Source: Escherichia coli
GTDB taxonomy: Bacteria > Pseudomonadota > Gammaproteobacteria > Enterobacterales > Enterobacteriaceae
NCBI RefSeq assembly: GCF_024223415.1
Contig: NZ_CP100500.1
Direction: 5' to 3' (one strand)
Length of the DNA stretch: 64,000 bases
Shown here: positions 1 through 3,000 of the stretch, one piece after another
Layout of the letters: every line of letters starts with the position of its first letter
Numbering within the stretch: position 1 is the first letter of the stretch
Program-made: the position numbers and the translations under genes
Notes under the pieces: generated by a model
The model's database searches: none
What the model was told of the DNA's origin: nothing
The model's input: only the letters and a program-made list of their open reading frames with translations

Positions 1-3000
1 CTTGTATGGACGTGCTAAGCGTGGAGCTACCATTTTCCAGGCTAGCTTCAATGGTATCCGGTCTCGCTCCTGTTTCTCTCGAGGAACGGGTATTGGTATA
101 AGTAACGGTAGCTTTACCCTGTTCGTTCGTCACGGCTTGGCCGCCGTTCGTCATTTCGGCAGATTTTGTTCTGCTGGTAAAGCTCACAGTCACACCTTTC
201 ACCGGAAAGCCATTATTATCAACGACTGTGGCCGTGATGACGCTGCCGGTGCTGTTCTGCGGGGTACCGGCGATTATGCTGTCTGGGACAGGCGTCAACT
301 CGATAATTTTTGCCGCCGCTGTGTCGCCAATAAAATGCACAGTTTTGTTGTCGCTGGCACCATTATTAGCCAGTGATGCAGTGACCGTCTGCTCACCAAA
401 GGCAACGCCTGCGAGAGTGGCCTGCGCGATGCCAGACTCATTGGTATTACTCACTCCCGGGGTCAGGGTGAGTCCTGAAGAGGCTGAGCTGAATGTTACC
501 GGAAGATTGTTCACCTCATTGTCGAACTGATCTTTAACCGTTGCAGTTAGCGTTGCGTTATCGACGCCATTACCTGTGATCTCATCTTTTGACATCTGCA
601 GGACAACCTGAGCCGAGGTTTTGTCCGCCACAAACGTTACCGGCTGCGAATCACTGGTATTGTTATTACTCAGCGTTGCGGTAACCGTATGCGTACCCGC
701 TTTTTTACCTTTGAGCATGACATGCGCTTCCCTATTGGCCTGGGTGATGGCAATGCCGTTATTTTCGAGGGTAAAGTTTGCCGCCACGCCCTGTGGCATG
801 GTGAAGTTCACCGCTATTCCCGCCACCGGATGATTCGACGGATCTTTCACCGTCGCCGTCAGCTGCACGCTGTCGCTGTTATTCGTCACCACCTGTTGAG
901 CAGGGATGTTCAGCGTGACCTGCGCGTTGCTGGCATCGGGCGCAATATTGACTGTCGTCGTATAGCCATTGCCGTTAAGCAGCGTGGCTTCGACTGTATG
1001 AACACCCAAAACCGTGCCTTTCAGGGTAACTTCAGCAACACCACTGTCGTTAGTATTGCTTGTGCTCTGACTAAGTTGAGTATCTGCCGGGTTGGTACTG
1101 AAGGTGACCGGTAGCTCTTTTACTACGTTATCAAAAGGATCTTTTACTGTTGCTGTCAGCGTCGTCTCATCCACGCCATTCCCAATGATTTCCGCTTTCG
1201 ATGTTTGCAGAACGACAACCGCGTTGTCCTTATCCGCCACGAATGTGACTGGTTGCGCATCGCTGGCATTATTGTTACCCAGCGTTGCGGTAACCGTATG
1301 CGTGCCCGCTTTTTTACCTTTGAGCGTGACATGCGCTTCCCCATTGGCCTGGGTAATGGCAATGCCGTTATTTTCAAGGGTAAAGTTTGCTGCCACGTCC
1401 TGTGGCATGGTGAAGTTCACCGTTATTCCCGCCACAGGATGATTCGACGGATCTTTCACCGTTGCCGTCAGCTGCACGCTGTCGCTGTTATTCGTCACCA
1501 CCTGTTGAGCAGGGATGTTCAGCGTGACCTGCGCGTTGCTGGCATCGGGCGCAATATTGACTGTCGTCGTATAGCCATTGCCGTTAAGCAGCGTGGCTTC
1601 GACTGTATGAACACCCAAAACCGTGCCTTTCAGGGTAACTTCAGCAACACCACTGTCGTTAGTATTGCTTGTGCTCTGACTAAGTTGAGTATCTGCCGGG
1701 TTGGTACTGAAGGTGACCGGTAAATCTTTTACTACGTTATCAAAAGGATCTTTCACTGTTGCTGTCAGCGTCGTCTCATCCACGCCATTCCCAATGATTT
1801 CCGCTTTCGATGTTTGCATAACGACAACTGCGCTGTCCTTATCCGCCACGAATGTGACTGGTTGCGCATCGCTGGCATTATTGTTACCCAGCGTTGCGGT
1901 AACCGTATGCGTGCCCGCTTTTTTGCCTTTGAGGGTGACATGCGCTTCCCCATTGGCCTGAGTGATGGCAATACCGTTATTTTCGAGGGTAAAGTTTGCC
2001 GCAACGTCCTGTGGCATGGTGAAGTTCACCGTTATTCCCGCCACAGGATGATTCGACGGATCTTTCACCGTTGCCGTCAGCTGCACGCTGTCGCTGTTAT
2101 TCGTCACCACCTGTTGAGCAGGGATGTTCAGGGTGACCTGCGCGTTGCTGGTATCGGGCGCAATATTGACTATCTTCGTATCGTTGTTGCCGTTAGGCAG
2201 TGTGGCTTCGGCTGTATGAACACCCAAAACCGTGCCCTTAAGGGTAACTTCAGCAATACCGTTCTCATTAGTATTACGCGCGTTCAGGCTCAGTTGTGTG
2301 TCTGCGGGGGAGGTGCTGAAGGCTACTGACAGATTTTTAACCACGTTATCAAAAGGATCTTTCACTGTTGCTGTCAGCGTCGTCTCATCCACGCCATTCC
2401 CAATGATTTCCGCTTTCGATGTTTGCAGAACGACAACCGCTCTGTCTTTATCCGCCACAAACGCCATTGGCTGAGCATCGCTGACATTGCTGTTAGCCAG
2501 ACGAGCCGTGATCATATGCGTGCCCGCTAACGTGCCGGTCAGGGAGGCGATGGCAATCCCGTTGCTATCCGTCATGCCTTTTCCGCTGTTGCTAATCGAG
2601 AACTGACTTGCGACGTCGTTTGGCACAGAGAAAGTGATTTCTTTATCTTTTAGTGGGTTGCCATTTTTATCCTGCAAGGTTGCCGTCAGCTGTTGAGGCG
2701 CTGTGTCGGTGACGGTGATCTCGCCTGAGGGCACACGGAGGGTCAGGGCAGCAGTACTTTGATCACCGATAAAATTCACCTGTTGATTAGCCTGGGAACC
2801 AGAGCTCACAGAGGCCGTAACCGTATAATCACCATTTTTCAAACTGGTCAGCGTGGCTGTGGCGATCCCGTCGTGGCTATTCACTTCGGTTTGGCTCAGT
2901 TTCGCCTCTGCTGAATTAACATTGAAGGTGACCTTGACGTCATTGAGCAGGTTGCCTTTTGCATCCCGGACTGTCGCGGTCATGGTGGCGCAGTCATTGC

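Follow-up and report, generated by a model that had tools for sequence, protein, structure and literature searches.

In-frame length variation of a 609-bp repeat array in the Escherichia coli adhesin gene yeeJ

How many repeat units does the adhesin gene yeeJ carry, is the number that an assembly reports to be trusted, and by what process does it come to differ between strains? These questions were raised by a 64,000-nucleotide stretch of Escherichia coli DNA (RefSeq assembly GCF_024223415.1, contig NZ_CP100500.1; hereafter, the window), which opens inside yeeJ. A model's reading of the letters of this stretch (hereafter, the sequence-only reading) had noticed tandem repeats of about 609 bp in the gene and had suggested recent unequal crossing-over, variable copy number and a possible assembly error. 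Our analysis indicates that the array is very probably an in-frame length polymorphism with a 609-bp step, changed by unequal homologous recombination, a reading to which we assign a probability of roughly 0.9.

The three-unit array and its gene

The array lies on the minus strand at 626–2452 of the window and consists of three direct copies placed head to tail at a spacing of exactly 609 nt, each unit comprising 203 codons. The top autocorrelation lags over yeeJ were 609, 1218 and 1827, and identity at lag 609 was 0.85–1.0 across approximately 660–1860, compared with a background of 0.2–0.35. Because identity to the units drops to about 43% in the neighboring 609-nt blocks (17–625 and 2453–3061), the array contains exactly three copies. 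Tandem Repeats Finder reported no repeat at the array because the longest period that it considers, 500, is below 609.

In the direction of the gene, the units are U1 (1844–2452, minus strand; aa 1038–1240), U2 (1235–1843, minus strand) and U3 (626–1234, minus strand). Identity was 91.3% between U1 and U2 (53 differences), 95.6% between U2 and U3 (27 differences) and 88.8% between U1 and U3 (68 differences). The differences are concentrated at unit nt 109–321 and 562–609, and adjacent units share perfect tracts of 259, 128, 91 and 85 nt. The longest of these tracts (1464–1722, repeated at 855–1113) would be a suitable substrate for homologous recombination; tens of bp of identity suffice for recombination of the RecA type. 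The sequence-only reading had placed at least three almost identical units at 480–2320. Three units at a 609-nt spacing were indeed found, but there are no more than three, the proposed range begins some 150 nt before the array and stops some 130 nt short of its end, no strand was given, and "almost identical" overstates the pairwise values above.

The two halves of a unit each make up one complete Big_1 domain by Pfam (69 and 75 bits; cut-off 34.9), in agreement with the two Ig-like domains per unit that had been read from the sequence. The first domain (D1) and the second (D2) lie at 2156–2452 and 1844–2155 in U1 and at 938–1234 and 626–937 in U3. The array as a whole supplies Ig-like domains 6–11 of the 21 in the stalk; by a purpose-built hidden Markov model, the proteins with three units, with two units and of K-12 have 21, 19 and 16 such domains, respectively. 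The block upstream of the array (2453–3061, minus strand) is likewise a pair of Big domains; the left anchor of the length measurements described below is formed by its final 300 nt. The block downstream (17–625, minus strand) is another such pair; its opening 300 nt form the right anchor, and its first domain has about 60% identity with D1.

Two substitutions, at 733 and 1115 of the window, set its U3 apart from the U3 of strain G1/2. The two proteins differ at two positions in this unit, including a change of Gly to Arg (ANGEAHV to ANREAHV). These substitutions could be either genuine private variants or consensus errors within repeated sequence. Open reading frames that recur antisense to the array (plus strand, 689–1114, 1205–1723 and 1814–2329; 141–172 aa) were considered as genes and rejected, as their products are rich in Arg, His and Cys and not protein-like. 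The antisense frame that is in phase with the codons has one stop per unit in all alleles examined.

The array is embedded in an open frame that spans 2–5650 on the minus strand, is the sole long one in 1–7000 and runs off the start of the window. The first 1854 codons of the gene lie at 2–5563, with the start ATG at 5563 according to the RefSeq annotation of G1/2; the revised yeeJ start of K-12 corresponds to an ATG at 5506. Strain G1/2 is 99.9% identical over positions 1–6000 of the window, and its full yeeJ is 8592 bp long, encoding 2863 aa. The gene order msrP-msrQ-zinT-serU-mtfA-asnT-yeeJ is common to the window, E. coli C and K-12, with the tRNA-Asn gene asnT at 5876–5951 (minus strand) as the synteny marker upstream of yeeJ, and the two array anchors are 93% and 97% identical to those of K-12. 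On account of this shared synteny and the similarity of the flanks, we identify the gene by sequence as yeeJ, the orthologue of K-12 b1978, as the sequence-only reading had named it.

The domain content of the protein was that of an inverse autotransporter. The translocator barrel (IAT_beta, PF11924) lies at 4307–5134 on the minus strand (aa 144–419) and scored 375.8 bits against a cut-off of 22.3; it matched the solved invasin and intimin barrels 4E1T (E = 5e-79) and 4E1S (1e-67). In the full-length G1/2 protein, Big_1 reached 968 bits over 19 stretches. An early stalk domain matched FdeC (4E9L), and the repeat unit matched intimin D00-D0 (6TPL). With its IAT_beta barrel preceding a passenger of tandem Big_1 domains, YeeJ has two of the features of an inverse autotransporter (type Ve) adhesin and is classified as one on this sequence basis. 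In the subgroup of YeeJ and intimin, a periplasmic LysM domain that binds peptidoglycan precedes the barrel; here the Pfam score for LysM was 14.2 bits, below the cut-off of 20.9; peptidoglycan binding by K-12 YeeJ has been shown experimentally (PMC5595812). For the C-type-lectin-like tip at the C-terminus, which lies outside the window, Invasin_D4 scored 22.7 bits in the G1/2 protein, below its cut-off of 27. In the protein databases, the N-terminal 521 aa retrieved nothing but fragments and proteins of less than about 900 aa, which are uninformative on lengths. When the unit protein was compared with one genome per species (GTDB representatives), no relative was found.

Array length and hybrid units across strains

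We measured the inter-anchor distance, that is, the distance between the 300-nt flanks of the array, at 14 other loci. It was 312 bp in K-12 MG1655, where a single chimeric domain takes the place of the array, and 609 bp in AHM21C2872I, which has one unit. Two units (1218 bp) were found in E. coli C, O157:H7 JEONG-1266, GZ04-0086 and NCTC9040, and three (1827 bp) in the window and in strains G1/2, 1190, GF43, GF60, N3 and PCN033. In O157:H7 Z1767, the distance was 2531 bp, representing two units with an IS3 element within the array. The lengths thus form a whole-unit series of 609, 1218 and 1827 bp, from which K-12 departs by a half-register deletion of 297 bp. Copy-number variability, for which the sequence-only reading had proposed a comparison of yeeJ length among strains, was therefore confirmed between the same anchors.

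Among 5426 complete E. coli genomes, 2910 matched the unit, 1272 of them with one full unit or more; among the other matching genomes, the chimeric domain of the K-12 type predominates. None of these 5,426 genomes had more than three matches to one unit. Three-unit spans were present in at least 28 complete genomes, and the entries that follow them among the matches listed are two-unit spans only. Two units, found in about 1,200 genomes, are by far the commonest full-unit state. The values for one-unit arrays and for arrays split by insertion sequences are lower bounds and sample fractions only. The three-unit genomes came from humans, dogs, mink, poultry, a frog, soil and seawater, and include a reference strain of the NCTC and an O166:H15 group. 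A U2 identical to that of the window was present in five complete genomes, three of which came from one German study of human feces and the other two from poultry and a bullfrog, respectively.

The gene is often disrupted in other strains. Besides the IS3 copy inside the repeat array of O157:H7 Z1767, insertions of IS66 and IS3 were seen in the yeeJ of NCTC9040, and in TUM9812 the N-terminal half of the gene has been replaced by an integrase-bearing island at asnT. The disruptions were located at 6629–7842 in locus L007, at 740–3052 and 6808–8018 in L014, and at 599–5379 in L015.

The units differ in type according to their place in the array. Across strains, first units are A-type and last units B-type, the contrast residing at unit nt 109–321 and in the tail at 562–609; in the window, U1 is A-type and U3 B-type, in head and tail alike. 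The middle unit of the three-unit alleles combines the B-type head of a last unit with the A-type tail of a first unit. In the window, site patterns across strains mark U2 as such a hybrid: the head (1464–1843, minus strand; unit nt 1–380) is B-type, without a single difference from the E. coli C last unit, and the tail (1235–1463, minus strand) is A-type at unit nt 540–609. The single unit of AHM21C2872I has the opposite composition, an A-type head with a B-type tail. Judged from these sequences, the hybrid middle unit and the one-unit allele are the reciprocal products that would be expected from unequal crossing-over.

The position of the exchange was not the same in all three-unit alleles. 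The middle unit of N3 is B-type only at nt 6–15, which places its crossover at nt 16–110, whereas the other alleles remain B-type past nt 216. These two crossover positions indicate, as far as allele sequences can tell, that three-unit arrays arose at least twice independently.

The K-12 allele requires a separate event. Its array nt 1–98 correspond to unit nt 1–98 and its nt 76–312 to unit nt 373–609, and the overlap at the junction is a 23-nt stretch, encoding LTATVKDP, that is common to both half-units. In the window, this motif lies at 2355–2377 (minus strand) in D1 of U1, with its paralogous copy at 840–862 in D2 of U3. Recombination between the motifs in D1 of U1 and D2 of U3 would yield the 312-bp form with its single chimeric Big_1 domain, which is still of full length (78 bits). 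By this alignment, the K-12 allele is a half-register deletion in which D1 from a first unit has been joined to D2 from a last unit. Parsimony favors deletion here, since the lost halves of D1 and D2 could not have come from a single chimeric domain.

Age, direction and alternative explanations

The divergence between A-type and B-type units indicates how old the duplication is. They are separated chiefly by a diverged patch, which in U1 lies at 2132–2344 (minus strand; unit nt 109–321) and covers the C-terminal two-thirds of D1; here 41 of the 213 nt of U1 differ from U2 and U3, with dS at 0.52–0.56 and dN at 0.14. Between the two types, dS was 0.45–0.56 in the patch and 0.08–0.16 in the rest of the unit, and the value outside the patch resembles the orthologous divergence between strains. 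Diversifying selection on the patch was considered and rejected, as dN/dS was about 0.25, which indicates purifying selection. In comparisons across strains, orthologous units grouped first with first and last with last; the two-unit duplication is therefore older than the divergence of the strains. Patches common to different units point to gene conversion. The two-unit duplication is thus old, and only the changes in copy number are recent. The recent unequal crossing-over proposed in the sequence-only reading is accordingly supported, with a qualification: the hybrid units have the polarity that it predicts, but the basic duplication is old, U1 and U3 being 11% apart.

The window and E. coli C offer the closest comparison for the direction of change, with no more than 2 SNPs between them across the 8173 nt compared beyond the array. 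Their first units (U1 in the window) are told apart by 2 sites and their last units (U3 in the window) by 7. A deletion model, in which the E. coli C array is composed of the U1 of the window followed by a U2 head joined to a U3 tail (crossover at nt 121–380), left 3 mismatches over 1218 nt, whereas an expansion model that derives the window array from that of E. coli C left 18 mismatches over 1827 nt. The simplest reading of these sequences is that E. coli C recently lost one unit from an allele of the window type. The opposite course, a very recent duplication of an E. coli C-type two-unit allele in the lineage of the window, was the direction that the sequence-only reading had implied. It would agree with the far greater frequency of two-unit arrays and with the U2 head being identical to the E. 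coli C last unit. The mismatch counts, set beside flanks that differ by 2 SNPs in 8.2 kb, tell against it, and we regard it as unlikely for this pair, with parsimony favoring a loss in E. coli C.

The process that we favor may be summarized as follows. Misaligned units pair, and homologous recombination adds or removes whole units, always in frame and at the boundaries of domain pairs, to give 2, 4 or 6 Ig domains. A separate deletion at short homology between half-units produced the single chimeric domain of K-12. First and last units have kept their distinct types in different strains, and patchy gene conversion keeps most of the unit alike. The changes in copy number are recent and recurrent on the old two-unit duplication. 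Each unit is predicted to lengthen the rod by two Ig domains, or about 7–8 nm going by the size of invasin-type domains, and the rod added between the outer-membrane barrel and the C-terminal lectin-like tip may alter the reach of the tip.

Several points weigh against this reading. The tail of U2 is a mosaic, with 8 differences from U1 in nt 450–528 that are shared with the units of other alleles; a single clean crossover is therefore insufficient, and additional gene conversion or inter-allelic recombination has to be invoked. Recombination is read here from the sequences of alleles, and no event was witnessed directly. The count of three units in the window is taken from its assembly alone. 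As for consequences, in the sole functional comparison in print, the short YeeJ of MG1655 and the long YeeJ of UMN026 gave the same biofilm formation (PMC5595812). Moreover, all eight of eight E. coli C-lineage assemblies have two units, and all K-12 derivatives have the 312-bp form. Since copy number is stable in these laboratory lineages, the array is not a high-frequency switch.

This stability bears on the proposal that the array is a contingency module, switching rapidly in length, as in phase variation, within a clone. In its favor are the in-frame repeats, the fact that reading frame and domain boundaries survive every change, and at least two independent expansions. However, copy number was constant not only in the eight E. 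coli C-lineage genomes but also in many K-12-derivative and many O157:H7 genomes, and the 2,910 genomes with the sequence contain only four array sizes, none with more than three units. We consider rapid switching highly improbable. An assembly artefact, by which the assembler would have created or mis-resolved the third unit of an array that in truth has two units or another number, deserves no more credence. The concern is natural, as 609-bp repeats at 89–96% identity exceed short reads and E. coli C, the nearest relative, combines a two-unit array with an otherwise nearly identical haplotype. Nevertheless, the array with a U2 at 100% identity recurs in five complete genomes, and the at least 28 complete genomes with three units include several different sequences. 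In addition, U2 copies neither U1 nor U3 but has a mosaic of its own with private variants, beyond what duplication by an assembler would create. The worry about assembly voiced in the sequence-only reading thus found no support, since several independent studies have yielded complete genomes with the same three-unit array.

Whether selection acts on stalk length is a further matter. Recurrent gains and losses of Ig pairs, which leave 1, 2, 4 or 6 domains at this place in the stalk, might tune how far the tip projects past the O-antigen, the capsule and other surface structures, a proposal that we find doubtful. If it were true, allele length would track surface architecture or host niche and not neutral drift. 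The YeeJ of K-12, as a deletion chimera and the most truncated natural form, might then under-report the function of the adhesin.

Surroundings, significance and comparison with known systems

Other parts of the window differ from E. coli C to varying degrees. From position 1 to about 17 kb, there were 0–3 differences per kb, apart from 24 that cluster in kb 12–13; beyond about 17 kb, within the region examined (1–37000), divergence was 1–3%. This jump in divergence near 17 kb therefore marks the boundary of a recombination block. The gene yodB, which lies between serU and zinT in MG1655, had no blastn match in the window (7033–7700), and E. coli C is likewise without an annotated gene at that position. 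The interval between fliE and yedL (37157–41854) contains emrE (37173–37685), ybcL (37854–38405), the AraC-type gene ybcM (38415–39212) and an IS200/IS605 element, in which tnpA is split into open reading frames at 40308–40595 and 39921–40256 on the minus strand and tnpB/InsQ lies at 40603–41811. This layout is present in about 1070 complete E. coli genomes; at the same site, E. coli C has IS3 and IS30 remnants and a group II intron instead. In the fliD–fliC region (47015–50200), megablast against E. coli C aligned only one stretch of 514 nt at 79% identity, which suggests a different flagellin (H-antigen) allele on a collinear backbone.

The practical value of these observations is modest, and no new mechanism is revealed. 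Short-read assemblies should not be trusted for the length of yeeJ, and both its presence or absence and its variant class are better typed by measuring between the anchors (312, 609, 1218 or 1827 bp). The published picture of two variants is incomplete, as there are at least four length classes. Where K-12 YeeJ is used as a display scaffold or a functional reference, it matters that the reference protein is a derived deletion chimera. The gene is also a clean, small natural case of unequal crossing-over in which both reciprocal products have been kept in the population.

Polymorphism in the number of domain-encoding repeats is a classic trait of bacterial surface adhesins, and the variation in yeeJ is of this familiar kind. 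The E. coli protein UpaH, the alpha C protein of group B Streptococcus, the staphylococcal proteins SasG and Aap, Bap, and the enterococcal protein Esp contain in-frame tandem repeats that encode domains, and recombination between the repeats changes their number, causing stalk length to vary from strain to strain. The arrays of these proteins usually have more copies that are more alike than those of yeeJ, which has at most three units with distinct first and last types. Intimin, invasin and FdeC resemble YeeJ in architecture, having an inverse autotransporter barrel followed by a rod of Big_1-type Ig domains. Unlike the yeeJ units, their Ig domains have diverged from one another, and we know of no near-identical tandem block in these three proteins.

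UpaH is cited in both PMC5595812 and PMC6714894, and the latter also leads to a close parallel. YrInv and YrIlm of Yersinia ruckeri (Wrobel et al. 2018, J Struct Biol, cited in PMC6714894) are described there as type Ve adhesins whose stalks have tandem, nearly identical Big domains, as in YeeJ, and their repeats are regarded as recent duplications and as a hazard for assembly. They belong to another species and are other genes than yeeJ.

The nearest precedent concerns yeeJ itself. Martinez-Gil et al. (2017, Sci Rep 7:11326, PMC5595812) compared the YeeJ of MG1655 and UMN026 and described a 906-bp segment, "made up of a repeated section", with three extra Big domains; the gene, the locus adjoining asnT and the region of the passenger are the same as those studied here. 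Because 906 equals 1218 minus 312 (or 609 plus 297), the published long variant would be the two-unit form, an equivalence for UMN026 that is drawn from this arithmetic and from the 7983-bp yeeJ of O157 and E. coli C. In the literature that could be searched, nothing beyond that two-variant paper turned up, and no account was found of the 609-bp unit, three-unit alleles, four length classes, hybrid units, two independent origins of three-unit arrays or a deletion-chimera reading of K-12. Variation in YeeJ length through a repeated section was therefore already published, and the present details are incremental. That paper has two variants without unit structure; to these the window adds an allele with a further 609-bp unit, and a one-unit allele exists as well.

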